Both the position numbers and the translations under genes were made by a program. A DNA stretch of 16,000 nucleotides from Trabulsiella odontotermitis (GTDB taxonomy: Bacteria > Pseudomonadota > Gammaproteobacteria > Enterobacterales > Enterobacteriaceae). The stretch covers positions 7,558 to 23,557 of the forward strand of contig NZ_LIFX01000007.1 in NCBI RefSeq assembly GCF_001297775.1. The letters are read 5' to 3'. The notes under the pieces are model-generated. The model was not told the DNA's origin. It saw only the letters and a program-made list of their open reading frames with translations, and did no database searches. Below, piece after piece: positions 1-15,299 of the stretch (within the stretch, counting starts at the first letter, position 1; the number at the start of each line of letters is the position of its first letter).

Positions 1-104
1 GTACGTGTGGAAACCGACAGTCGCTGCGCCAGTTCATCCTGCGGCAGCGTTTCGTTTTGCAGCAAATCAAACAGTTGCGCTAAACGTTGGTTGGGGAATC
101 GCAC
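1..104 (-). CDS. 5' fragment (first ~35 codons) of a putative winged-HTH transcriptional regulator; the gene continues beyond the left edge
   Basis: GTG at 104..102 is the first start codon after an in-frame TAA (149..147). GAGGAA lies 7 nt upstream. Translation is MRFPNQRLAQLFDLLQNETLPQDELAQRLSVSTRT, matching the LxxLL...(D/E)ELAxxLxVSxRT pattern of N-terminal wHTH domains in DeoR/MtlR/LicR/LevR-type sugar regulators. It is too short and truncated to appear in the ORF track. Confidence 0.4.
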   Translation of the reverse strand, partial: MRFPNQRLAQLFDLLQNETLPQDELAQRLSVSTR

Positions 105-153: not shown

Positions 154-1305
154 TTAGGGTTTTGATGATATGACCATTTGCGATGGGCTTCCCACCGCCG
201 TGTAGTCCTCTGCAAAGGTTAACTTGCCATCGGTCGGCGACACGCTGAAACGGGTGATATTGTCGCTGCGCTGGTTCATCACATACAGCCAGCGGCCTTG
301 TGCATCGAGCGTCAGCGTGCGCGGATAGTCGCCGCGCGTCCAGATATCCTGCTGGTGTGTCAGCGTACCGTCGGCCGTTACAGTAAAGTGACCAATGCTG
401 TTATGCAAACGGTTGGCAACATACAGCTGTTTTCCGTCGTGGCTTAACACCAGACCGGCGGCAAAACTGGTGCCCTTGTAGCCGTCCGGTAATGCCGAAA
501 TCGTTTTACCTTCGCGCAGGGTGCCGGTGGCCGTATCCAGTTGATAGTAAGTTAGCGTAGAGGCTTCTTCGTTAATCAGCCACACGCCGTCGCCTTTCGG
601 AGTGAAAACAAAGTGGCGCGGACCGGCACCGTTCGAGGATGCCGCGACAAACGGCGGATCGTTCGGCGTCAGCTTGCCGCTCGCTGCGTCAAAGCGGTAC
701 TGATAGACGCGATCCAGCCCCAGATCGGTTGAAAAGACATACTTCCCGCTGGGATCAGCGGCGATCATGTGGGCATGCGGACCGTTATGGTCACTGATAG
801 CAAAGCTGCCTTCGACGGCACCTTCAGGTTTTGCCGCGCCCGCCGGACCTTCATCCTGATGCGTATCACTCGCCTCGCCCAGGCTGCCATCCGCTTTCAC
901 CGGCAATACAGCGATCGAACCGCTGACGTAATTCGCCACCAGCAGATGTTTACCGTCCGGCGTCAGCGAGAGATAGACCGGCCCGGCACCACCGGAAGCG
1001 GCCTGATTCAACTCGCTCAGCTCACCCTTTTCATTAATACGCCAGGCCTGTACGACGCCTTTTTCAACTTCGCTGGCGGCATACAGCGTTTTGCCGTCTG
1101 CGGAAACGGTGAGCTGGGCGGCGTTAGGTAGCGTGCTGACCAGCGTTTTGTCGCTGAGTACGCCGGTTTGTGGATCAACCGAAAAACGGTACAGCCCTTC
1201 ACCATTCGGATTGTAGGTGCCCACCCAGGCAAACTGCGTTTGCGCCGTGGCGGCGGTGGCGAGCAGAGAAAATGAAGCAACAAGCAGATGACGTGCAGAA
1301 AGCAT
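154..1305 (-). CDS. Exported 7-bladed beta-propeller lactonase (6-phosphogluconolactonase/YbhE-like fold family), 383 aa
   Basis: ATG at 1305 is preceded by AAGGAG (AAGGAGTTAATATG). The N-terminus MLSARHLLVASFSLLATAATA/QTQ looks like a Sec signal peptide with an AxA cleavage site. There are repeated blade motifs of the form DGK.LYxAN / GxGPRH: SADGKTLYAASE, TPDGKHLLVANY, DPSGKYVFSTDLG, GAGPRHFVFTPKG, SHDGKQLYVANR, DAQGRWLYVMNQ. Confidence 0.8.
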   Translation of the reverse strand: MLSARHLLVASFSLLATAATAQTQFAWVGTYNPNGEGLYRFSVDPQTGVLSDKTLVSTLPNAAQLTVSADGKTLYAASEVEKGVVQAWRINEKGELSELNQAASGGAGPVYLSLTPDGKHLLVANYVSGSIAVLPVKADGSLGEASDTHQDEGPAGAAKPEGAVEGSFAISDHNGPHAHMIAADPSGKYVFSTDLGLDRVYQYRFDAASGKLTPNDPPFVAASSNGAGPRHFVFTPKGDGVWLINEEASTLTYYQLDTATGTLREGKTISALPDGYKGTSFAAGLVLSHDGKQLYVANRLHNSIGHFTVTADGTLTHQQDIWTRGDYPRTLTLDAQGRWLYVMNQRSDNITRFSVSPTDGKLTFAEDYTAVGSPSQMVISSKP

Positions 1306-1385: not shown

Positions 1386-2126
1386 TTATTTAACCCGTTG
1401 TTTGGTCATCGCCAGCAACTGGCGTACATCGTCAGGGCGGGTATCACCACTGGCTTTATCAATGATGGAGCTATAGATGTGCGGAATGATTTTGCTGACC
1501 CCGGCGTCGAGCGCGATCTGCAGGATCTCGCCGAAGTTTTCCAGATCGATACCCCCGGTCGGCTCCAGCCAGAAATCATGACGGGCGCAGGCTTCCGCCA
1601 CCGCTTTGTATTCGTCACGGCACTTGAGGCCACCCATCGGGAAATATTTCACCGAACTGCCGCCCATGTCTTTCAGCAGGGCGATCGCGGTGTCAACCGG
1701 CACGATGCCATCCGCGGCGGCGCTGCTCAGCGGACCGGTGGAGATCTTCACCATGCCCGGCGTGCCGGTCGGGGAAATCAGCCCATTTACCACCGTCTGG
1801 TTCTGCCCCAGCAGCGCACGGCTGGTCGCGACGCCGGTGAAAACCTGGTTCACATGCTGCGGCTGTACCTGACGGGAGATTTCACTGACCATGGCCGACT
1901 GGTTCGGATCGCCCGCGCCCAGCCCGACGGACAGCGCGTTATCGATTAGCGCCGCATACTCGCGCATATCCGCCACCGCCGTGGCGACATCCGGGTAATT
2001 TTTGGAAAGCACACCGACCAGCACGTGGCCTTCTGCCGCTTCGTAAATGGCGCTGGCATTCGCTTTGCTTCCCGCCAGCACGTTCAGGCAGACACGATCA
2101 CGATAAAAATTCGGGGTCAGTTTCAT
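1386..2126 (-). CDS. KDGP (2-dehydro-3-deoxy-phosphogluconate) aldolase, DgaF/DagF-type (not the Eda type), 246 aa
   Basis: Full-length ORF. Its ATG overlaps the upstream gene's stop codon as ATGA (2123-2126). The sequence (MKLTPNFYRDRVCLNVLAGS..., GLGAGDPNQS, YFPMGGL, EPTGGID) matches my recollection of the KDGP-aldolase family exemplified by Salmonella DgaF. The gene sits directly downstream of a DgaE-like gene. Confidence 0.75.
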   Translation of the reverse strand: MKLTPNFYRDRVCLNVLAGSKANASAIYEAAEGHVLVGVLSKNYPDVATAVADMREYAALIDNALSVGLGAGDPNQSAMVSEISRQVQPQHVNQVFTGVATSRALLGQNQTVVNGLISPTGTPGMVKISTGPLSSAAADGIVPVDTAIALLKDMGGSSVKYFPMGGLKCRDEYKAVAEACARHDFWLEPTGGIDLENFGEILQIALDAGVSKIIPHIYSSIIDKASGDTRPDDVRQLLAMTKQRVK

Positions 2127-3241
2127 GCTTTTTTCTCCTTGTTCAGTACTTCGGCAATGCGGCGCGCGACGATCTCAAGCTGATCGGCGTTAACGCTACG
2201 CACATCCGCTTCGATGATCCCTTCGTTCGCTTTGTAACCACGGAAATAGATGGCGTACTGCCCTTGCTTAAGAGCGTTGACCAGATCGCCGGTCGCCACG
2301 TTGGTCACCGCTTCATCAAATTTGATTTCGGTACGGGCGATGTCGCGTCCGGCGCTGTCCCATACCACGCGGGCAGTCACACCCTTCAGGGTATTGAGCT
2401 GGTTGATGAATGGCGTCATCTTCGCCACCATCTCATCACCGCTCTCTTTGCTGGCGGTGAGGTAATGTTCGATGGCGCAAGTCAGGCCGAGAATGCCCTC
2501 TTTACCGACTTTCATCGCCCGGCCGATGCCTGCCGTCTGGCGTTTCACCCATTCGACGTACTGCGTTTTACCGATCACCAGTCCGCTGGTCGGCCCTTCG
2601 ATGGCTTTCGCGCCGCTGTAGATCACCAGATCGGCGCCCATGCGGTAGTAGCACTGCAAATCTTCTTCTGCCGCCGCATCAACAATCAGCGGCAGGTTGT
2701 GTTTACGCGCTACCACGGCGGCCTGCTCAACGCTGAGCATGCTTTTCTGTACGCAGTGGTGAGATTTGATATACAGGATCGCCGCAGTGCGTGGCGTGAC
2801 AGCCGCCGCGAGCTGATCGGCAGAGCATTCATTGGCATAGCCCGCTTCCACCAGCTTACCGCCGCCGAGCGCAACCATGGTGCCCACCGGCGCGCCAAAG
2901 TTAACGTTGTGCCCTTTCGGCAGCACGATTTCGTTATTTTCAATCGGCGTGACGTGGAGATTTTCCAGCAACCAGTCGCTGTCTTTTACCAGCACCGCCG
3001 CGACCGACTGCGCGATCCCCGCAGAAGCGCAAGAGACCACCGTCGCCCCTTCCACTTCCAGCAGTTTTGCAATGTATTCCCCGGTTTTGTTGACCAGATC
3101 TTTCATTTCAAAGTAGTGGTTCATGCCGCTCATGACGGCCTCGACCACTTCCGGACGCGGCGTGGAAACCCCTAACGCCGTCATGCGACCGGATGTATTA
3201 ATCACTTGTTTTAAATTGTATTTTTCAAAAATCGAAGGCAT
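2123..3241 (-). CDS. DgaE/SelA-like fold-type I PLP enzyme (putative amino-sugar-acid-phosphate ammonia-lyase), 372 aa
   Basis: The motif YSGAKAIEGPTSGLVIG parallels the SelA PLP-lysine motif SGDKLLGGPQAG. The start ATG lies inside the last codons of the upstream gene (17-nt overlap, 3225-3241). The gene is paired with a DgaF-type aldolase, as in the Salmonella dgaE-dgaF arrangement. Confidence 0.8.
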   Translation of the reverse strand: MPSIFEKYNLKQVINTSGRMTALGVSTPRPEVVEAVMSGMNHYFEMKDLVNKTGEYIAKLLEVEGATVVSCASAGIAQSVAAVLVKDSDWLLENLHVTPIENNEIVLPKGHNVNFGAPVGTMVALGGGKLVEAGYANECSADQLAAAVTPRTAAILYIKSHHCVQKSMLSVEQAAVVARKHNLPLIVDAAAEEDLQCYYRMGADLVIYSGAKAIEGPTSGLVIGKTQYVEWVKRQTAGIGRAMKVGKEGILGLTCAIEHYLTASKESGDEMVAKMTPFINQLNTLKGVTARVVWDSAGRDIARTEIKFDEAVTNVATGDLVNALKQGQYAIYFRGYKANEGIIEADVRSVNADQLEIVARRIAEVLNKEKKA

Positions 3242-4358
3242 GTTCCGTGCTCCCTTGTTCGGTCATATAGCCCTTGCCCGCACGAATAGCGGCCAGCGGC
3301 ACCAGAATATTGTCAGCCTGCAGGCTGTCGTTTTCGGCATCCACCATCACGGTGGGCTGATGTTTCAGCGTGAAGAGGGTCAGATCAGCGTCAAAGCCTG
3401 CTGCCAGGCGTCCTTTACGCGATAAGCGCAGCCCTTCTGCCGCATGGTCAGTGACACAGGCGATCACCTGCGGCAGCGACAGGCCAATGGCGAGAAATTT
3501 CGACATCACACTCGCAAGAGAATGTACCGGGCCGTCAATACGGTTGCGGCAGTAGATATCCGAGCTGATGGTGTGCGGCAGAATGCCCATGCTGATGGCG
3601 CGTCGCGCCACCTCAAAGCTGAAACTGGCCGTGCCGTGGCCCACATCGAGGCGCACGCCGCGCTGAATGGCGCGGGTAATGGAGGCACGCAGTTCGCCCG
3701 CGGGCGTCAGAATGCGGTTTGGTTTGCCGTTATAGCAGTGAGTAATGATATCGCCGGAGGTCAGCAGTTCCGCGATCTCATCCAGATTCGGCGGATTGTT
3801 GCCGATATGCACCATCAGCGGCAGATCGCCGTTCTCTTTCTGGATGCTTTTGGCGCGTTCCAGCGGCGTGATGCCGTTTTCGCCGACCACGCTACTGCTC
3901 ATACGCGCTTTCAGTCCGACGATAAAATCCGGGTGACGTTTGACCGCGTCGCGAACCGCAGCGGCATCAATATTCGCCATGTTCGACAGTTCGTTCTGGG
4001 CAATCAGCCCGACGCGGGATATATTCAACAGCGCATAGACGTCAGTGCTGGCCTGACGGGTCAACTGCCAGAAGTCGTCAATGTCGTCCGCACCGGTGCT
4101 GCCAGCGTCGATGACCGTGGTGACACCCGTCGCGATGCCGACGCTGTCAGGTTCATCGTGATAAATCGGGGATTTTGGGTAGCAATGGACGTGGGAGTCA
4201 ATCCAGCCTGCGCTGACATAAACCTCGCCGTGGAGTTCTACCGTTTTTTTCGCGGGTGCGGTGATATCGCCCAGTGCGGCAATTTTGCCGTCCAGAATGG
4301 CGATATCGGTCAGGGTATCGTCGACGAGGCGCGCACGGCGCAGGAGTAAATCAAACAT
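3225..4358 (-). CDS. Amidohydrolase-superfamily metallohydrolase (deacetylase/deacylase-like), 377 aa
   Basis: The metal-ligand set is visible: DSHVHCY (HxH), GLKARMS (candidate carboxylated Lys), MVHIGN, ITHCYNG and ISSDIY (Asp). The RBS is AGGAGAAAGG before the ATG at 4358. Confidence 0.8.
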   Translation of the reverse strand: MFDLLLRRARLVDDTLTDIAILDGKIAALGDITAPAKKTVELHGEVYVSAGWIDSHVHCYPKSPIYHDEPDSVGIATGVTTVIDAGSTGADDIDDFWQLTRQASTDVYALLNISRVGLIAQNELSNMANIDAAAVRDAVKRHPDFIVGLKARMSSSVVGENGITPLERAKSIQKENGDLPLMVHIGNNPPNLDEIAELLTSGDIITHCYNGKPNRILTPAGELRASITRAIQRGVRLDVGHGTASFSFEVARRAISMGILPHTISSDIYCRNRIDGPVHSLASVMSKFLAIGLSLPQVIACVTDHAAEGLRLSRKGRLAAGFDADLTLFTLKHQPTVMVDAENDSLQADNILVPLAAIRAGKGYMTEQGSTEHAFDF

Positions 4359-4376
4359 ACCTTTCTCCTGTGAAGG

Positions 4377-4394
4377 CGGGCGCCGGAGCGCCCG
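4377..4394 (-). other. Intra-operon RNA hairpin with a C(UCCG)G tetraloop
   Basis: The minus-strand RNA reads CGGGCGC-UCCG-GCGCCCG: a 7-bp GC stem with a UNCG-class tetraloop. It lies in the only sizeable gap of the operon (43 nt, between the DUF4310-like stop at 4402 and the amidohydrolase start at 4358). No U-tract follows, so it is not a classic intrinsic terminator. Confidence 0.5.
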
Positions 4395-4401
4395 TAAAAC
4401 A

Positions 4402-5046
4402 TTAGCTGATAGCGATGGGGAAGATAGAACCGAGGATCATGGCGCCAAGAATGGCTCCCCCGGTGATCGGCTTCTGCCAGAGGTAGAACAGCAGCGCGCC
4501 AATCAGTGAACCCACGCCGATCGGAATGGACGCCGTCATTGCGCTCAGGATAATCAACGGCCCGAGGAAGCGGCCTGACGCGTTACCGGCACCCATCATG
4601 ACGTCAGCACCGTAGGTGGAGTCGCTCTGGTTGATGGTGAACTTACGCGCCAGAATAATGATGTAACCAATCGCCAGACCAATCACCAGACCGGTAATCA
4701 GCGACGCAATGAAATTGGTCACCGGGAACATGATCCCCGCGCCCAGCAACAGCGCCGGAACCCCAAGACCCACACCGGTCTGGATAGCGCCGCCGATATC
4801 AAGGATCCCCACCAGCGAACCTTCGATGATACGGGCAAACAGGAAGCTCGCGCCAAACGCCGCGACCGCACCGTATACGCCGGTATCAATCCCCGCTTTC
4901 AGCATGGCCACGAAGGCCACTTCGTTAAACGCGCCGATACCGTAGAGGTAGTACATGTGCGTCCCGGCGAACACGCCGGAGGAGAGCAGGCCAACAAAGA
5001 TCGGGAACGACCAGTCGGCATACCAAAAACCTTTTTTCTCTTCCAT
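4402..5046 (-). CDS. Polytopic inner-membrane protein, DUF4310-like, 214 aa (function unknown)
   Basis: About 6 hydrophobic, Gly/Ala/Ile-rich segments. The RBS is CAGGAGCC, 4 nt before the ATG at 5046. There are 12 nt after the upstream stop. The family assignment is from recall of the conserved SFCGS/DUF4312/DUF4311/DUF4310 gene neighbourhood. Confidence 0.75.
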   Translation of the reverse strand: MEEKKGFWYADWSFPIFVGLLSSGVFAGTHMYYLYGIGAFNEVAFVAMLKAGIDTGVYGAVAAFGASFLFARIIEGSLVGILDIGGAIQTGVGLGVPALLLGAGIMFPVTNFIASLITGLVIGLAIGYIIILARKFTINQSDSTYGADVMMGAGNASGRFLGPLIILSAMTASIPIGVGSLIGALLFYLWQKPITGGAILGAMILGSIFPIAIS

Positions 5047-5058
5047 TTCAGGCTCCTG

Positions 5059-5835
5059 TTATTTACCGCTGAGAGAGTTATGGATCACATCCAGCCAGTT
5101 CGGGACGGTCAGATGGAAAGATTCGATCATCTTCATGTCGAAGCCGCGGAAGAAGCCGCTCAGAACGAACAGCGCTACAATCGCCACCATCATCACTTTG
5201 GTCACACGATGCCAGCCGCTCTCTTCAACGCCTTTACCGATCAGAATACCCAGTACCAGACCTGGCACGGCGTTACCCATGATCAGTTGCGCTGCGCCAC
5301 CGAAGACGGTTGCCCAGAAGCCGGATTTTTTACCCGCGTCGATAGCCGCCAGCCAGAAGATCACCGGCATCACGGTATTCACCAGCAGGTTTGCCGCCGG
5401 TACCAGTACCTTCACTGCCGTCACCTGCAGTGCTTCCGGTACGGACGAGGCGGTCAGGTTGAGGAAGGTCACCACGATCATGCCGATCACGCCGCAGGCG
5501 ATCGCCATTTTCTTCGGATCATGCAGCGTTTCACCGACATTGCGGTTTTTCAGCATCAGCGCTGCCGCACCCCAGTTAGGAATAATGCGGTGGTCGACGT
5601 CCTGTGTGAAAGAACCCGCCGCAACAGAGGAGGCCCACGCGTTGAAGAAGAAGCCTAACCCAAAGGAGAAGTGAGACGCAGGGTCCCCTTCGCAAGAGTT
5701 CAGTTCCCCCAACGTACGAAACGCGCCCATCCCCTGTGTGGTGGGCGCATGAAACATGCGTGCAGCCCCAGCACCCACGCCGACGCCCACGAGGCCACCG
5801 ATGATGAGTGATTTTATTAAAATTATCAGGAACAT
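5059..5835 (-). CDS. Polytopic inner-membrane protein, DUF4311-like, 258 aa (function unknown)
   Basis: About 6-7 hydrophobic segments (MFLIILIKSLIIGGLVGVGVGAGAA..., VMPVIFWLAAI..., VMMVAIVALFVLSGFF). It is tightly linked to its neighbours on the same strand. Confidence 0.75.
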   Translation of the reverse strand: MFLIILIKSLIIGGLVGVGVGAGAARMFHAPTTQGMGAFRTLGELNSCEGDPASHFSFGLGFFFNAWASSVAAGSFTQDVDHRIIPNWGAAALMLKNRNVGETLHDPKKMAIACGVIGMIVVTFLNLTASSVPEALQVTAVKVLVPAANLLVNTVMPVIFWLAAIDAGKKSGFWATVFGGAAQLIMGNAVPGLVLGILIGKGVEESGWHRVTKVMMVAIVALFVLSGFFRGFDMKMIESFHLTVPNWLDVIHNSLSGK

Positions 5836-5857
5836 TAGTCTGCCCTTTTAGTAAGAA

Positions 5858-6157
5858 TCAGCGTTGCGTGACAAAATCTACCCTGTCGAGGTTGATGGCG
5901 GTCACGTTGACGGTGACATCCAGCTCCACGCTGTACGACCGTCTTTCCCGGCGCAGAAAGAAGAACAAAAACGCTTCCTTACGCACCGCTTCACGCGCAT
6001 GAACAACTTGCACATCCTGTGGCTCAATACGCAGTAAAATGTGCGGTGAACTCTTCATCACCGCTGATTGCACCTGGTTAAGCGCATCGGAAAAAGCACG
6101 TGCTTTTGAGTCGCCTTTGCCCTTAACCCTCACCGTGGTGGTGAACTGCTCTTTCAT
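5858..6157 (-). CDS. Small soluble protein, DUF4312-like, 99 aa (function unknown)
   Basis: The ORF starts 2 nt after the stop codon of the SFCGS gene (TAA-CT-ATG), which suggests translational coupling. There are no hydrophobic segments. Confidence 0.7.
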   Translation of the reverse strand: MKEQFTTTVRVKGKGDSKARAFSDALNQVQSAVMKSSPHILLRIEPQDVQVVHAREAVRKEAFLFFFLRRERRSYSVELDVTVNVTAINLDRVDFVTQR

Positions 6158-6159
6158 AG

Positions 6160-6525
6160 TTATGCGCCGTATTTCTTTTTCCAGGCTTCCACCAGGCGCT
6201 CGCCCAGCTCTTCTTTATCCATAAAGCCAAAACCCAGAACGTTGCAGCCTTCATTGATGGCCGTTACGCCCTCATCCACAGAACGCATGCCGTATTTCGC
6301 TTTGTAGCCATATTTGTTTTGTGCCGTAATGGCGCCCGCGCCACCGCTACCGCAGAAAGAGATGCCGAAGGTGGCGTTTTCCGCTTTCATCACGTCGCCA
6401 AGCTTCATGTCTGCCGCTACGCCCGGAACAACCACGGCACGGCCACCGGCTTTCTCAACGCCTGCAGCCACTTTCTGTCCTTTGCCAAGGCGATCGCCAA
6501 TCACAACGGTAATCTGTTCCATCAT
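6160..6525 (-). CDS. Glycine-rich SFCGS-family protein, 121 aa (function unknown; EIIB-like Cys loop)
   Basis: It contains the literal family signature GISFCGSGGAGAITA (Cys58 codon at 6354..6352). AAGGAG overlaps the stop codon of the upstream PRD gene. The start is a double ATG ATG. Confidence 0.8.
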   Translation of the reverse strand: MMEQITVVIGDRLGKGQKVAAGVEKAGGRAVVVPGVAADMKLGDVMKAENATFGISFCGSGGAGAITAQNKYGYKAKYGMRSVDEGVTAINEGCNVLGFGFMDKEELGERLVEAWKKKYGA

Positions 6526-6532
6526 TTGCTCC

Positions 6533-6853
6533 TTAAAGGTTGTCTTTCGCTACTTCGAAGTGAACGGAGAGCAGCCAGGCTTCTTCCTCAGGGAGATTGC
6601 CGAACTGCGCGACCACTTCTCGGGCGAGCGTCATTGAATCTGGTGAAATTTCTTCGAACAGGCTGGCGTCCACTTCAGGCAGCGGCTCACCGGTCACTGA
6701 CCGATGCGCCATCGCGCGGACGTGAGAGGTCAGCATCTGCTCCTGTACTGCATTGGGGAGAATGTTGTGGCGGCTGAGCAGCGCAAAGGTCTGCTTCAGC
6801 ATGGTATCGGCAAGTTTCTCTGTCTGAACTGCCTGGTCCCCAACGTCGTTCAT
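6533..6853 (-). CDS. Stand-alone PRD (PTS regulation domain) protein, ~106 aa
   Basis: The two conserved His contexts typical of a PRD are present: MLTSHVRAMAHRS and EEAWLLSVHFEVA. I prefer the ATG at 6853 (GGAG, then 5 nt, then ATG) over the track's start at 6946. That start is actually a GTG lying inside a 20-bp palindrome, with no SD. No CAT/RNA-binding or HTH domain is evident. Confidence 0.7.
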   Translation of the reverse strand: MNDVGDQAVQTEKLADTMLKQTFALLSRHNILPNAVQEQMLTSHVRAMAHRSVTGEPLPEVDASLFEEISPDSMTLAREVVAQFGNLPEEEAWLLSVHFEVAKDNL

Positions 6854-6939
6854 TACCGCTCCGTTAATCACTCGTCTTACCCCGTTAATGTCTCTGAGAT
6901 AAAAGTAGCGTTGGGAAACCGGAGTTTGTAGACAGTTGT

Positions 6940-6959
6940 TTTCCACTTCGAAGTGGAAA
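6940..6959. promoter_or_regulatory. Perfect 20-bp palindrome TTTCCACTTCGAAGTGGAAA (candidate operator) upstream of the PRD operon
   Basis: Read directly from the sequence: 10/10 arm complementarity with no spacer. It overlaps a possible -35 (TTCGAA, 6952..6947) that lies 16 nt from a TACAAA -10 (6930..6925) on the minus strand. Confidence 0.5.
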
Positions 6960-6972
6960 GGAAACAGGCAGC

Positions 6973-6988
6973 AGTGATCTGTGCCACA
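6973..6988. promoter_or_regulatory. Weaker CRP-like site (minus strand TGTGG-N6-TCACT)
   Basis: 8/10 match to the TGTGA-N6-TCACA core. The centre is ~6980.5, about 62 bp upstream of the TSS implied by the TACAAA -10, which is class-I-like spacing. It overlaps a sigma-54 look-alike (see rejected list). Confidence 0.3.
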
Positions 6989-7023: not shown

Positions 7024-7039
7024 TGTGATGAATATCACG
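7024..7039. promoter_or_regulatory. CRP-binding site candidate TGTGA-tgaata-TCACG
   Basis: 9/10 match to the CRP core TGTGA-N6-TCACA. The left flank is AT-rich. The centre is ~7031.5, which is 51 bp (about 5 helical turns) from the second CRP-like site. Confidence 0.5.
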
Positions 7040-7184
7040 GGGATTGGCGGCAAATCATGGCGTGTCGCAGCGAAAAACCTTGCGAGGCTTCTCGTAAAAA
7101 TGTGATGTCGATAAGGTTTGCTTATAAAAAATCGCTAAGATGCTTGCGGGTGCTTGAGACTTTCCGTCTCAGGCATGGGACGGA

Positions 7185-7300
7185 AAGTGGAAAGCCCCAC
7201 CTGACTATAAATCAAGGTGGGGCCCTAAACTTCACGTCTCAACCGTGGAGGTTAGTGCCTTACCTGCAGAAGCAAGGAGGCATCCATGAAACGACCGCAA
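7185..7300 (-). ncRNA. sok: Candidate Sok-like antisense RNA (exact ends unresolved)
   Basis: There are two candidate minus-strand promoters. One is TTGCTT(7275..7270)-N15-TAACCT(7254..7249), positioned as I recall the R1 sok promoter (TTGCGC-N17-TATCCT). The other is a perfect TATAAT at 7309..7304 with no good -35. On the minus strand the hairpin GCCCCACC-N14-GGTGGGGC (7223..7194), followed by TTTCCACTTTCC, could serve as its terminator. This is an inference by analogy only. Confidence 0.3.
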
Positions 7301-7434
7301 CCAATTATACGGGCGCTGCTGATAATTGCTATGACAATCATCGCAGTGACTCTGATTACCCGGCGATCGCTTTGCGAAATTCGATATCGCAACGGTTCGC
7401 AGGAAGTTGCAGCACGTCTGGATTGCAAATCTGA
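7255..7434 (+). CDS. mok: Possible mok-like overlapping reading frame (modulator of hok translation)
   Basis: This is the 3' part of the track's 7057..7434 ORF. A GTG at 7255 lies 3 nt after GGAGG (7247-7251), and the frame overlaps nearly all of hok, as mok does in R1. The start codon and spacing are suboptimal. An alternative 14-codon ORF (GTG 7245 to TGA 7289) ends in an ATGA overlap with the hok start. Confidence 0.3.
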   Translation: MPYLQKQGGIHETTATNYTGAADNCYDNHRSDSDYPAIALRNSISQRFAGSCSTSGLQI

Positions 7435-7441
7435 CAAGTAA
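7286..7441 (+). CDS. hok: Hok/Gef-family membrane toxin, 51 aa
   Basis: Hand translation gives [51 protein letters not shown]. It has one N-terminal TM helix followed by the family signature TR(K/R)xLCE(I/V)R.R.G..EVAA. Compare R1 Hok (...[28 protein letters not shown]) and E. coli HokB/HokC/HokD. AAGGAGG lies 5 nt before the ATG. The gene is absent from the ORF track because it is under 60 aa. Confidence 0.9.
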   Translation: [51 protein letters not shown]

Positions 7442-12637: not shown

Positions 12638-14209
12638 TCAGACCGCGCCTGCGCCCTGTAGCCTGAACGAGGCCATCGCTTCAATCAGCTCCTGCGACTG
12701 CTCTTCCAGCGAGCGCGTTGCCGCGGAGGATTGCTGTACCAGCGCGGCGTTCTGCTGAGCGGTTTCATCCATCTGGCTGACGGCGATATTCACCTGCTCA
12801 ATGCCACGACTTTGTTCCTGCGACGCACTGGCGATTTCACGCATCAGCTTGGTCATTCGCAATACTTCGGTGGCGATTTCATCCATCGTTTCACCCGCCT
12901 GCAGCGCCAGATCGCTCCCCTCGCCCACGTGACTGCGGGAATCGCTAATCAGCTGACGAATTTCTTTCGCCGCATCCGCACTGCGGCTCGCCAGAATGCG
13001 CACTTCACCTGCAACCACCGCAAATCCACGCCCCTGCTCACCCGCACGCGCCGCTTCCACCGACGCGTTGAGCGCCAGGATGTTGGTCTGAAACGCGATG
13101 CCGTCGATGACGCTGAGGATGTCGGCAATACGATCGGAACTGCTGGAGATATCGCGCATTTTTTCAATGACGTAGCACACCATTTCGCTGCCGCGATCGG
13201 CGGTGTCAGAGACCGCTTTCGCCAGCTGGTGCGCCTGCTCGGCATTTTCAGCGTTCTGTTTCACCGTCGCGGTGATCTCTTCCATGCTCGCCGCCGTCTG
13301 CTCAAGGGAGGTCGCGGTGGATTCTGTCCGCTGTGCCAGGTGCATGTTACCCGCCGCCAGTTCGCGGCTGCCGGTATCAATTTGTGAGCTGGCGTCACGC
13401 ACCCGCAGCACGGAAGACATCAGCGACTGGCGCATGTCGTCGATAGCCGCGTTGAGGCGGTTAATTTCGTGGCTCGCCTGTTTGTCCGTTTCCCAGGTGA
13501 GATCCCCGGCGGCGACATGTTCCAGTTGAGCGATAGACGCATTCAGCGGCTTGAGCAGCATCTGACGCAGCGCCATCCATGCCAGAACGATCACCCCGGC
13601 CGTCAGCAGTGCGACAATGATGATAAACATCATCACCCGCGTTTTACTGCTCTGCACCGCGCTGACCTCTGCTTTTCCGCGCTGGTCGACCCACTTCTGA
13701 TACGCCTGCATGTCGTTGTCAAACTGGCGGGAAACCGGGATCAGGCTCTTTTCGAGCAGATCGTAATAGCCGTCCGCGCTCTGTTTGTTCAGCGCGTCCA
13801 GCATCGGCTTAATGCCCTGTTCGCTGTAAGCGGCGTAGCTGCCCGCCACCGTTTTCAACAGCTTATCGCCCTGCTCGTCCTGCATCGGCGTGCTGAGCAC
13901 CGCAGCCAACACCTTTTGCGCCTGCGCCACTTCTGTATTGATATTTTTGACCGCTTTAGTGGCGTCATCCAGCATCCCGATTTCCATCAGACGTACCGCC
14001 TGACCGGCTTCGTTACGCGCCCGCAAAATCAGGGTATAGCCTTCATTGAGATGCACCATCTGCTCACCCTGGAGCTGGTTGATGCGCTGCAAAGAGGAGG
14101 AACTTTGAGAGAGGGCATAAATGCCCATGCCGCTCACCAGCAAAAGCAGGAGCGTCATCACGGCGAGTACAGAGAGCAGGCCGGTTCGAATCGATAGCGT
14201 TTTTAGCAT
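12638..14209 (-). CDS. Methyl-accepting chemotaxis protein (4-helix-bundle periplasmic sensor, HAMP, 36-heptad-type signalling domain), ~523 aa
   Basis: The signalling hairpin IADILSVIDGIAFQTNILALNASVEAARAGEQGRGFAVVAGEVR is nearly invariant with Tsr/Tar. Methylation-helix motifs are present: SLEQTAASMEEITATVKQNAENA and QQNAALVQQSSAAT. There are two TM segments. I prefer the start ATG at 14209 (MLKTLSIRTGLL..., like the Tsr start MLKRIKIVTS) over the track's ATG at 14242. The latter lies only ~2-3 nt from the TSS predicted from the sigma-28 promoter and has no SD. Confidence 0.9.
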   Translation of the reverse strand: MLKTLSIRTGLLSVLAVMTLLLLLVSGMGIYALSQSSSSLQRINQLQGEQMVHLNEGYTLILRARNEAGQAVRLMEIGMLDDATKAVKNINTEVAQAQKVLAAVLSTPMQDEQGDKLLKTVAGSYAAYSEQGIKPMLDALNKQSADGYYDLLEKSLIPVSRQFDNDMQAYQKWVDQRGKAEVSAVQSSKTRVMMFIIIVALLTAGVIVLAWMALRQMLLKPLNASIAQLEHVAAGDLTWETDKQASHEINRLNAAIDDMRQSLMSSVLRVRDASSQIDTGSRELAAGNMHLAQRTESTATSLEQTAASMEEITATVKQNAENAEQAHQLAKAVSDTADRGSEMVCYVIEKMRDISSSSDRIADILSVIDGIAFQTNILALNASVEAARAGEQGRGFAVVAGEVRILASRSADAAKEIRQLISDSRSHVGEGSDLALQAGETMDEIATEVLRMTKLMREIASASQEQSRGIEQVNIAVSQMDETAQQNAALVQQSSAATRSLEEQSQELIEAMASFRLQGAGAV

Positions 14210-14251
14210 GATGTTATTTCCGGTAGCAGGGGACTTCGGCATAAAATAAAT

Positions 14252-14278
14252 TTATCGGCGGCTACCGGAAAAAGTTTA
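14252..14278 (-). promoter_or_regulatory. Sigma-28 (FliA) class-3 flagellar promoter for the MCP gene
   Basis: The minus strand reads TAAACTTT-(11 nt)-GCCGATAA against the consensus TAAAGTTT-N11-GCCGATAA: 7/8 and 8/8 matches with exact spacing. Confidence 0.85.
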
Positions 14279-14300
14279 GTTTTAATGCAATTTCAATATG

Positions 14301-15299
14301 TTACCGGGTTGTTGCGTTATTAACCCTCGTGACCGGCGAACTCTGGCGATTCTCCCACAGCACCGTCAGGCCACGCTGCAGGGCAATGAAAATGAACAAC
14401 AAAATGCCGATGGCGATCTTGGTCCACCACGAGCTGAGTGTGCCATCAAAGTTAATATAGGTCTGAATCAGCCCCTGGATTCCCACGCCAAACAGCGTTC
14501 CCAGCACCGTACCGACGCCGCCGCTGAGCAGCGTGCCGCCAATCACCACCGAGGCGATCGCGTCCAGCTCCACGCCAACGCCCGCCAGCGCATAGCCCGC
14601 CTGGGTATACACCGAGAACACAATGCCTGCCAGCGTCGCCAGCCCGGTGGAAAGCATGTAGATGCGAATGGTAGTGCTGCGCGTCGAAATCCCCATCAGG
14701 TTGGCCGACGTCGCGTTGCCGCCGATGGCATACACCTGATTGCCAAAACGGGTGCGGTGAGCGAGGAAAATCCCCACTACGACCACCAGCAACATCAGGA
14801 GCCCCATCGCGCTGAGACGCCCGCCGCCGGGAATCGTCCAGGCCAGATCAGAAAGCGAGTCATACACCGGATGGTTAATCGGGATCGACTCTTCAGAAAC
14901 CAGATAGCTGACACCGCGCAGGAAGAACATCCCGGCAAGGGTGATGATAAACGCCGGGATTTTGAGCGCGTCAATCAACAGCCCCATAAACGCGCCAAAC
15001 GCGCAACCCATCACCAGCACCAGCGGAAACGCCAGCAGCGGGGAGATCCCCCAGAAGCCGATCGCTTTCGCCAGAAAAACCCCGGTGAAAGCGATCACCG
15101 AGCCGACGGAAAGATCTATCCCCCCGGAGAGGATCACGAAGGTCATGCCGACAGCGATGATCCCAAGAAACGCGTTATCGGTCAGGATGTTGCAGATGAC
15201 GCGCGTCGAAGCGAACCCCGGAAACTGCGTCAGACAATAGAGATAGCCAAGGATAAACACCCCGAGCGTAATCATCAGCGGTAAATTACGTTTGATCAT
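14301..15299 (-). CDS. yjfF: Galactofuranose ABC transporter permease YjfF, 332 aa
   Basis: MIKRNLPLMIT.GVF.LGYLYCLTQFPGFASTRVICNILTDNAFLGIIAVGMTFVILSGGIDLSVGS... is collinear with E. coli YjfF. The start overlaps the ytfT stop by 14 nt. Confidence 0.95.
   Translation of the reverse strand: MIKRNLPLMITLGVFILGYLYCLTQFPGFASTRVICNILTDNAFLGIIAVGMTFVILSGGIDLSVGSVIAFTGVFLAKAIGFWGISPLLAFPLVLVMGCAFGAFMGLLIDALKIPAFIITLAGMFFLRGVSYLVSEESIPINHPVYDSLSDLAWTIPGGGRLSAMGLLMLLVVVVGIFLAHRTRFGNQVYAIGGNATSANLMGISTRSTTIRIYMLSTGLATLAGIVFSVYTQAGYALAGVGVELDAIASVVIGGTLLSGGVGTVLGTLFGVGIQGLIQTYINFDGTLSSWWTKIAIGILLFIFIALQRGLTVLWENRQSSPVTRVNNATTR

Follow-up and report, generated by a model that had tools for sequence, protein, structure and literature searches.

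A conserved, mobile gene cassette of Trabulsiella odontotermitis with a possible phosphotransferase-linked permease and a candidate route for amino-sugar acid catabolism

In Salmonella, the dgaABCDEF operon combines a mannose-family permease of the phosphotransferase system (PTS) with the lyase DgaE and the aldolase DgaF, and its expression is under sigma-54/DgaR control. A nonphosphorylative pathway with a step order analogous to the one proposed below, the Ong pathway of Pseudoalteromonas, acts on N-acetyl-D-glucosaminate (GlcNAc1A) from chitin oxidized by lytic polysaccharide monooxygenases (LPMOs): deacetylation, deamination to a 2-keto-3-deoxy acid, and aldolase cleavage are served by a sodium/solute symporter (SSS) family transporter, the D-aminoacylase-type OngB, and the D-amino-acid-deaminase-type OngC, with KdgK acting last, on unphosphorylated 2-keto-3-deoxygluconate (KDG) (PMC9537276). 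The window analyzed here, a 16-kb stretch of the Trabulsiella odontotermitis genome (positions 7,558-23,557 of contig NZ_LIFX01000007.1), contains a cassette of eight genes, all on the minus strand, in which a candidate deacylase, a DgaE-family lyase, and a DgaF-type aldolase are encoded together with two polytopic membrane proteins (DUF4311 and DUF4310) and three small soluble proteins (SFCGS, DUF4312, and a stand-alone PRD protein). This cassette system is real, widespread, and uncharacterized. We suggest that it constitutes a self-contained, horizontally mobile, PTS-wired unit for uptake and catabolism, in which a PTS-dependent permease is built from noncanonical parts, a reading to which we give slightly less than an even chance. 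The cassette and the two genes that follow it are laid out as listed here, with NCBIfam scores given against the model cut-offs.

6533..6853, minus strand: small stand-alone PRD protein, 106 amino acids, starting at ATG 6853 (TIGR03582, 137 bits against 69)
6160..6525, minus strand: SFCGS protein (PF14272; TIGR03577, 225 bits against 141)
5858..6157, minus strand: DUF4312 protein, small and cytoplasmic (PF14189; TIGR03578, 141 bits against 90)
5059..5835, minus strand: DUF4311 polytopic membrane protein (PF14188, E 1e-121; TIGR03580, 517 bits against 301)
4402..5046, minus strand: DUF4310 polytopic membrane protein (PF14187, E 3e-108; TIGR03579, 394 bits against 215)
3225..4358, minus strand: amidohydrolase/deacetylase of the EF_0837 family, a candidate N-deacylase (TIGR03583, 578 bits against 432)
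2123..3241, minus strand: SelA-like ammonia lyase of the DgaE family, dependent on pyridoxal phosphate (PLP) (TIGR01437, 609 bits against 385)
1386..2126, minus strand: DgaF-type aldolase for 2-keto-3-deoxygluconate 6-phosphate (KDGP, also KDPG) (PF07071, E 9e-110; TIGR03581, 412 bits against 222)
154..1305, minus strand: lactonase, a seven-bladed beta-propeller protein like 6-phosphogluconolactonase, with an N-terminal signal peptide (PF10282, E 5e-101)
3..104, minus strand: first 34 codons of a regulator, starting at GTG 104 and cut by the left edge of the window

A first-pass annotation of this DNA had described eight tightly packed minus-strand genes, and every junction that it listed is exact by the coordinates of the open reading frames (ORFs): gaps of 7 nt (PRD-SFCGS), 2 nt (SFCGS-DUF4312), 22 nt (DUF4312-DUF4311), 12 nt (DUF4311-DUF4310), and 43 nt (DUF4310-amidohydrolase) are followed by overlaps of 17 nt (amidohydrolase/DgaE-like) and 4 nt (DgaE-like/aldolase, an ATGA). 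Its family assignments also hold, with PF14272, PF14189, PF14188, PF14187, PF07071, the SelA/DgaE family, and the EF_0837 amidohydrolase all matched. The contiguous genes exceed the cut-offs of all eight NCBIfam (TIGR-numbered) models for the conserved-hypothetical set EF_0829-EF_0839/AHA_3910-AHA_3917; the cassette is already catalogued in NCBIfam as a conserved-hypothetical unit, with no function assigned to it. Full-text literature searches by family, locus tag, PDB code, and enzyme name found no functional study of the cassette and gave no characterization of any member, as had been supposed. In 80 related enterobacterial loci, the comparison set for all counts out of 80 given below, the order of the eight genes is kept without exception (80/80), and because the same order is found in alpha-, beta-, and gammaproteobacteria and in Firmicutes, the arrangement is not due to chance. 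The proteins of the window are 97-100% identical to those of two Trabulsiella loci (L001 and L002). The unit had been drawn as spanning 1386-6946, but it continues past the aldolase through the lactonase into the regulator, and its PRD gene starts at 6853.

The sequence of deacylase, DgaE-family lyase, and DgaF-type KDPG aldolase proposed in the first pass is supported by the family models, by an aldolase that passes the DgaF equivalog model (NF047796, 394 bits against a cut-off of 300; nearest solved structure, 3M0Z, E 2e-143), and by conserved residues of the lyase. The lyase matches the Salmonella enzyme (DGL; 7LC0/7LCE) at E 1e-83 and retains H162, H163, R301, R332, and R346 in 15/15 cassette orthologs, except that H162 is replaced by Ala in Bartonella. 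Arg301, Arg332, and Arg346 are placed around the 6-phosphate of the substrate in Salmonella DGL (PMC9529869), and the presence of an intact DGL-type arginine pocket in all 15 lyases therefore argues for a substrate that is phosphorylated before the KDG stage. The cassette thus resembles Salmonella Dga in its PLP-dependent lyase, with the same catalytic histidines and phosphate arginines, in its DgaF-equivalog aldolase, and in the logic of handling a phosphorylated amino-aldonate without a kinase. It differs from Dga in having no DgaABCD (EII-Man) homologs, in the window or in related loci; in a lyase that fails the DgaE equivalog model (NF047797, 368 bits against a cut-off of 600); in an extra deacylase step; and in a regulator of the MtlR/FrvR type rather than the sigma-54 bacterial enhancer-binding protein (bEBP) DgaR. 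Salmonella carries both the Dga locus and the cassette. The amidohydrolase is near-identical over its full length to PDB entry 8WZY (E 2e-219, 731 bits) and matches 2ICS (EF_0837) at E 7e-110; the labels that the PDB attaches to these entries, "Dihydroorotase" and "Adenine deaminase," respectively, both look misannotated for this deacylase family.

On the simplest reading of these sequences, the route would run from an N-acyl-amino-aldonate-6-phosphate to the amino-aldonate-6-phosphate, on to KDPG (or an epimer), and from there to pyruvate and glyceraldehyde 3-phosphate. Our guess, made by analogy, is that the substrate is an N-acylated 2-amino-2-deoxy-aldonic acid, most likely N-acetyl-D-glucosaminate or an epimer, and N-acetyl-D-glucosaminate could arise from oxidized chitin or from N-acetylglucosamine (GlcNAc). 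A substrate of the GlcNAc type is attractive because of the NagA and MupG neighbors seen in relatives, the frequent presence of a periplasmic lactonase, and the known GlcNAc1A pathway. The NagA and MupG neighbors also point to GlcNAc-containing precursors, and the extra genes of some relatives hint at GlcNAc-containing disaccharides that feed the pathway. The cassette shares with Ong the deacetylation, deamination, and aldolase steps, but its protein families are different, it has no kinase, and its lyase has a phosphate pocket; GlcNAc1A is put forward here as a hypothetical substrate.

Regulators with a PRD-PRD-EIIA_2 architecture are controlled by HPr and a cognate Enzyme II (EII), and those of the MtlR type need HPr for activation; alphaproteobacteria usually have no sugar PTS, whereas gamma- and betaproteobacteria have ptsHI. 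The link to the PTS that had been drawn through the PRD domain is strengthened by the occurrence of such a regulator in 79/80 loci (the contig of the 80th ends too early to tell) and by a gene for a fusion of HPr with Enzyme I (HPr-EI) in two alphaproteobacterial genera, Bartonella and Microvirga. It is strengthened further by the phosphohistidines of the small PRD protein, by the phosphate-binding arginines of a lyase for which no kinase is supplied, and by two relatives described below, one in which the module goes with another enzyme and one in which the small PRD protein stays beside the core under a GntR-type regulator. In the window, a ribosome-binding site and an N terminus of the helix-turn-helix (HTH) type are seen at the start of the regulator, and the Chromobacterium regulator matches window positions 104..3 at 76% identity (tblastn). 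A full-length ortholog of about 640 amino acids (L001:15732-17642) has the Pfam architecture HTH_11-Mga-PRD-PRD-EIIA_2 and matches FrvR at E 8e-23, and on the architecture of this ortholog, we take the regulator to be an activator of the MtlR/LicR/FrvR type. It is also found in Chromobacterium, Gilliamella, Vibrio, Microvirga, and Bartonella and is frameshifted in three loci. The likeness to the MtlR/LicR/ManR/FrvR activators extends over HTH_11, Mga, the two PRDs, and the C-terminal EIIA_2 domain; unlike them, the cassette regulator has no recognizable PTS permease beside it as its cognate EII, and it is accompanied by an extra, stand-alone PRD protein. In Microvirga and on plasmids of Bartonella, the HPr-EI gene directly adjoins that of the regulator, and it is absent from the gamma- and betaproteobacterial copies of the cassette; the cassette carries its own HPr-EI in hosts that would be expected to have no sugar PTS. 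The proteobacterial cassette contains no canonical EII, and among its proteins, the only EIIA is the PF00359 domain of the regulator, the small PRD protein not being a member of an EIIA family. Kinase genes are missing from the nine-gene proteobacterial cassette (the eight genes and the regulator), the plasmid copy included. The earlier statement that no sugar kinase is encoded is correct for the 16-kb window, in which Pfam and NCBIfam models found no kinase gene, but it does not extend to Enterococcus faecalis, where a PfkB kinase gene adjoins the cassette.

SFCGS, DUF4312, and the small PRD protein have no hydrophobic or signal segments and are therefore cytoplasmic partners rather than binding proteins. 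SFCGS has an invariant Cys58 in a glycine-rich CGSGGAG loop, and when its AlphaFold2 (AF2) model (pLDDT 91) was compared with the PDB by Foldseek, the top 38 matches and 46 of the top 50 were isomerases of the RpiB/LacAB fold, including RpiB-type KduI-like proteins (TMq 0.59-0.72, E down to 3e-5), with lactose EIIB (3NBM) only at rank 49 (TMq 0.43). Cys58 is paired by phmmer with the catalytic Cys66 of RpiB, and Ser60 is paired with Thr68; the invariant Asp11, which follows strand 1, would by its position correspond to RpiB Asp9. RpiB His99 has no counterpart in SFCGS, which has Asn or a variable residue there and stops short of the helix with Arg133 and Arg137, and its scores lie below the RpiB family cut-offs (PF02502, 16.6 against 24.7 bits; RpiB NCBIfam models, 17-18 against 135-168 bits); there is no match to Pfam PTS_IIB. 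SFCGS, which had been counted among four proteins of unknown function, does resemble a known family, that of the RpiB/LacAB sugar-phosphate isomerases rather than EIIA or EIIB. It shares with RpiB and LacAB the alpha/beta fold and a Cys in the CG[ST]G loop between beta3 and alpha3 but is some 30 residues shorter, and its gene invariably lies next to genes for two membrane proteins and a PRD protein. It shares with the Cys-phosphorylated EIIB proteins (Lac/Chb, Gat, Asc, and Mtl) a small, cytoplasmic, Rossmann-like form, a Cys that looks essential in a glycine-rich loop of the phosphate type, and a place beside genes for membrane subunits, but its Cys loop follows strand 3 rather than strand 1, and the structural similarity is weak. 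Taking the model into account, we regard SFCGS as a candidate phosphocysteine carrier or catalytic subunit.

The small PRD protein scores below the cut-off of the Pfam PRD model (17.8 against 23 bits), and in the PDB, its family profile finds 3NUF (E 6e-26), labeled "PRD-containing transcription regulator," and, less strongly, LicT (1TLV, E 0.004). Its H44 is invariant and is found in E. coli YhfY as well, the histidine of its HFE motif is conserved in the core family, and both align (HMMER) with the conserved histidines of LicT PRD1 and PRD2, which we take to be His100, His207, and His269. By sequence, the protein is a genuine PRD that keeps both canonical phosphohistidine positions. In DUF4312, A21 is the sole residue that is invariant among 10 diverse orthologs, and no His or Cys is invariant; the protein is absent from two related loci (L095 and L096) and relocated to the operon end in another (L092), and its profile found no relative in the PDB, the best match being a nonsignificant Alba-like one (E 0.22). 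We regard DUF4312 as a variable accessory subunit. The two membrane and two soluble proteins had been likened to IIA, IIB, IIC, and IID; this analogy fails because DUF4312, with no invariant His or Cys, is missing in one lineage and moved in another, and because the fold of SFCGS is of the RpiB/LacAB type.

DUF4311 and DUF4310 each have several hydrophobic segments, and Pfam and NCBIfam match them only to their own families, which agrees with the first-pass view that they are unlike known EII, ATP-binding cassette (ABC), major facilitator superfamily (MFS), or tripartite ATP-independent periplasmic (TRAP) transporter components; within these two databases, no homology of the pair to EIIC or EIID families (PTS_EIIC, EIIC-GAT, SgaT/UlaA, EII-Sor, and EIID-AGA) was found. 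A search of 1.84 billion representative proteins with a DUF4311 profile gave 125 matches (about nine full-length clusters), none of them outside the family itself, and there is no relative of DUF4311 in the PDB. We do not claim paralogy between DUF4311 and DUF4310, since BLASTP and hhalign comparisons were nonsignificant, even with a more diverse alignment; hhalign of DUF4311 against E. coli YhfT was likewise nonsignificant. A forced MAFFT alignment places in both proteins, at the same position, an N-terminal transmembrane segment followed by H-x5-G-x-GAF. The DUF4311 stop and the DUF4310 start are in frame and 12 nt apart (window positions 5047-5061). Apparent DUF4311-DUF4310 and SFCGS-DUF4312 fusion proteins in the databases, P0122, P0137, P0148, and P0161 among them, look like products of internal deletion, stop loss, or misassembly rather than natural fusions.

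The nearest architectural analogue of the cassette is the yhfZYXW-php-yhfUTS cluster of E. coli, which is likewise uncharacterized. It encodes a small PRD protein, YhfY (TIGR03582, E 1.6e-6), together with PLP-dependent and hydrolase enzymes and no kinase, and its YhfU protein (DUF2620, about 117 amino acids) has, like SFCGS, a C-x-[ST]-G-x-G-A loop together with an RpiB-like match, if only a weak one. Unlike that of the cassette, its membrane part is a single polytopic protein of 434 amino acids, YhfT, and its enzymes are different. We considered whether YhfU is homologous to SFCGS, and YhfT to DUF4311 or DUF4310, and set this aside: BLASTP and hhalign gave nonsignificant results, and the resemblance is at the level of motifs only.

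A genome scan for DUF4311 relatives found them in at least 522 species. Hosts of the cassette include Salmonella, Klebsiella, Enterobacter, Citrobacter, Serratia, Yersinia, Aeromonas, Vibrio, Photorhabdus/Xenorhabdus, Chromobacterium, and Enterococcus faecalis/faecium; the nine-gene form recurs in Gilliamella, Vibrio, Chromobacterium, Microvirga, and Bartonella plasmids, and Firmicute versions are found in E. faecalis and Brevibacillus. At the megablast level, the operon was found in no complete genome of E. coli. Identity to distant orthologs is 61-86% for SFCGS, DUF4311, and DUF4310, compared with 41-79% for the aldolase, 41-72% for the lyase, 44-60% for the deacylase, 33-62% for DUF4312, and 39-53% for the small PRD protein; DUF4310, among the three slowest-evolving proteins of the cassette, retains 67-86% identity to orthologs in other phyla or classes. 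By these figures, SFCGS, DUF4311, and DUF4310 form a slowly and coordinately evolving core, isolated in sequence, as would be expected of a tight complex, beside which the more variable small PRD protein is always encoded. In a divergent Firmicute-like relative, the order regulator-PRD-SFCGS-DUF4312-DUF4311-DUF4310 is combined with a single hydrolase of the metallo-beta-lactamase (MBL) fold and with no Dga-like enzymes; the core module is therefore a portable front end that is not tied to Dga-like chemistry. In a termite-gut relative, the regulator is of the GntR type, and the small PRD protein is still encoded beside SFCGS, DUF4311, and DUF4310 (TIGR03582, 97 bits), so it is unlikely to serve a PRD regulator only. 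The E. faecalis cluster also holds a DUF-like protein of 99 amino acids and a MupG-family gene, and in the termite-gut relative L095, genes for an MFS protein, NagA, and MupG lie in or beside the cassette (3172-4260 and 13402-14541).

The cassette is clearly mobile, as it adjoins smpB in Vibrio stylophorae (L090, 2394-7660), accompanied by an integrase and a resolvase, and lies on 55-kb plasmids of Bartonella (one of them represented by L082), and within a composite transposon in E. faecium (PMC11934601). A copy in a record labeled "Martelella alba" (L098) was not used as alphaproteobacterial evidence: its neighborhood is of the enterobacterial type (pmbA-cybC and rpoN-hpf-ptsN-rapZ-npr), the record may be contaminated or mislabeled, and its cassette is a decayed copy that has a truncated DUF4311 and no DUF4310 and in which the ORFs of lactonase and regulator run together.

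The region upstream of the cassette contains the following conserved elements.

6940..6959: perfect palindrome of 20 bp, TTTCCACTTCGAAGTGGAAA, lying some 90 nt upstream of the PRD start, its columns invariant in the upstream alignment
6973..6988: promoter-proximal CRP-like site TGTGGCACAGATCACT, with two mismatches to TGTGA-N6-TCACA and a position conserved across genera
7024..7039: distal CRP-like site TGTGATGAATATCACG, with one mismatch to the CRP consensus, partly conserved across loci

The PRD gene had been given a start at GTG 6946, which is over-extended; the true start is ATG 6853, as the TIGR03582 alignment to the longer ORF begins only at residue 40, an alignment of the upstream regions of 21 loci shows a conserved GGAG-N8-ATG at 6853, and position 6946 falls within the invariant palindrome. 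The palindrome TTTCCACTTCGAAGTGGAAA occurs once in the window, where none would be expected, and exactly once upstream of the PRD gene in each of the 80 loci; this pattern makes it the probable operator of the MtlR-type regulator. A sigma-54 promoter (TGGCAC-N7-TGC at 6971-6986) was considered and rejected: its spacing is one base off the canonical one, it is not enriched, and there is no bEBP. The TGGCAC motif aligns across genera as part of the proximal CRP-like site, TGTGN8TCAC. At the other end of the unit, the lactonase gene, which lies between the aldolase and the regulator in 52/80 loci, encodes a signal-like N terminus (MLSARHLLVASFSLLATAATAQ); its product is probably periplasmic, and the gene is probably an optional accessory. 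On the minus strand, GC-rich hairpins with no T-runs follow the aldolase (cgccccctctcgtcgggagagggcg, within 1306-1385) and the lactonase (ggcgggtgcgagaggcgcccgcc, within 105-153); they may be partial terminators or RNA-stabilizing elements, and the lactonase and the regulator may therefore be partly transcribed separately.

The mechanism that we propose would work as follows. Expression would depend on the CRP-like sites and on binding of the regulator to the invariant palindrome, and the periplasmic lactonase, where it is present, would open an aldonolactone before uptake. DUF4311 and DUF4310 would form the membrane permease, on which SFCGS would dock and carry a phosphate on Cys58, thus playing an EIIB-like role despite its RpiB-like fold; DUF4312 would be a nonphosphorylated accessory. 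HPr would phosphorylate the small PRD protein on its conserved histidines, and this protein would either feed the phosphate to SFCGS, in the manner of an EIIA, or signal to the regulator whether SFCGS is phosphorylated. The substrate would enter as the 6-phosphate, which would explain the absence of a kinase; group translocation by the cassette is thus a plausible hypothesis. In its boldest form, a joint claim that we consider doubtful, the small PRD protein, SFCGS, DUF4311, and DUF4310, with or without DUF4312, would make up an unrecognized PTS Enzyme II family, in which phosphate passes from HPr to the PRD (the EIIA equivalent), to the Cys of the RpiB fold (the EIIB equivalent), and on to an amino-sugar acid; a heterodimeric pair of membrane proteins, without sequence relationship to known EIIC, would translocate this acid, and YhfY, YhfU, and YhfT would be a second branch of this design.

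Several observations weigh against a PTS-driven permease. In a rival arrangement, an ordinary secondary transporter plus an enzyme, the DUF4311-DUF4310 pair would be an ion-coupled carrier for the sugar acid, SFCGS would work as an RpiB-like isomerase or epimerase or as a cytoplasmic substrate-handling subunit, the kinase would be encoded elsewhere (for example, KdgK acting on KDG, or PfkB), and the PRD proteins and the EIIA_2 regulator would serve PTS-mediated catabolite control only; we consider this possible, if rather unlikely. No component of the cassette matches an EIIA, EIIB, EIIC, or EIID family by sequence in Pfam or NCBIfam, and the substrate has been named purely by analogy. An AF2 model of the membrane-pair "fusion" P0148 reached a pLDDT of only 49 and a pTM of 0.36, so that the transporter class is unassigned by fold; Foldseek searches with this low-confidence model returned noise only (TM <0.2), and the alignment of the pair is too shallow because no listed homolog falls below 72% identity. 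SFCGS has an isomerase fold, with the positions of the RpiB catalytic Cys and Ser/Thr aligned and kept and that of the Asp matched by positional inference only, and an enzymatic role can be read from it equally well. The HPr-EI gene could be needed only for activation of the PRD regulator, in view of the HPr requirement of MtlR-type regulators. In E. faecalis, the cluster (L081, 10548-13283) has an adjacent PfkB kinase and an extra Lac-family EIIC, and an MFS transporter lies within the operon of the termite-gut relative L095, so uptake or phosphorylation could fall to other proteins. The known GlcNAc1A route, moreover, deacetylates and deaminates first and phosphorylates KDG last (PMC9537276). 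An ordinary carrier with late phosphorylation is, however, hard to square with the three-arginine phosphate pocket of DGL in 15/15 lyase orthologs or with the lack of a kinase in the nine-gene proteobacterial cassette, the plasmid copy included. SFCGS, for its part, is without the His99 and the C-terminal phosphate-binding helix of RpiB and falls below the Pfam cut-off, and it stays with the membrane pair, and evolves in step with it, when the enzymes are exchanged.

The extra transporters within the operons of relatives (the EIIC in E. faecalis and the MFS protein in the termite-gut relative) could also mean that the PRD protein, SFCGS, DUF4311, and DUF4310, with or without DUF4312, are a membrane sensor or transceptor, the endpoint of a phosphorelay that controls the PRD regulator while bulk uptake is left to another transporter. 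The tight linkage to PRD proteins is consistent with signaling, and a catabolic permease would not usually be so highly conserved, but neither the nine-gene proteobacterial cassette nor the Bartonella plasmid copy offers another transporter candidate, and the module is kept with a GntR regulator, where a sensor for a PRD regulator would have no target; we judge this explanation improbable. That the genes are a chance juxtaposition or a decaying island rather than a functional unit could be argued from the decayed L098 copy and from the frameshifted regulators in three loci. It is effectively refuted by the conservation data, since gene order is kept across phyla and without exception in the 80 loci, and the ORFs are intact and under strong purifying selection.

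The backbone of the window is ytfT-yjfF-(methyl-accepting chemotaxis protein gene)-fbp-mpl-yjgA-pmbA-cybC, with the eight cassette genes downstream of cybC and the whole island placed between cybC and nrdG/nrdD. A hok/sok type I toxin-antitoxin locus lies at 7148-7441 on the plus strand, between cybC and the operon; it is found at this position in only 12/80 related loci and is therefore a variable insertion. The chemotaxis gene seems to be another insertion relative to what we take to be the gene order of E. coli K-12.

7148-7288, plus strand: sok (Rfam RF01794, 89.5 bits)
7286-7441, plus strand: Hok-family ORF of 51 codons (NF007279, E 3e-17)
12638-14242, minus strand: gene for a methyl-accepting chemotaxis protein, Tcp/Tar-like but below the equivalog cut-offs, between yjfF and fbp

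In summary, if the cassette encodes an ordinary carrier and an additional enzyme, the finding shrinks to the annotation of a known conserved-hypothetical cassette. If instead its permease is driven by the PTS, it would represent a new Enzyme II family with parts recruited from an isomerase fold and a PRD domain, and the way in which PTS components are recognized in genomes would change; with a relay from the PRD protein to SFCGS, PRD domains would act not only in regulation, as is known, but also as phosphocarriers in transport, and the obscure yhf cluster of E. coli would gain a testable function. In bacteria that do not have the Ong enzymes, of which Aeromonas is one case (bioRxiv 10.1101/2024.02.07.579344), the cassette would also be a candidate for a phosphorylative route by which N-acetyl-amino-aldonates, for example GlcNAc1A from LPMO-oxidized chitin, are used.

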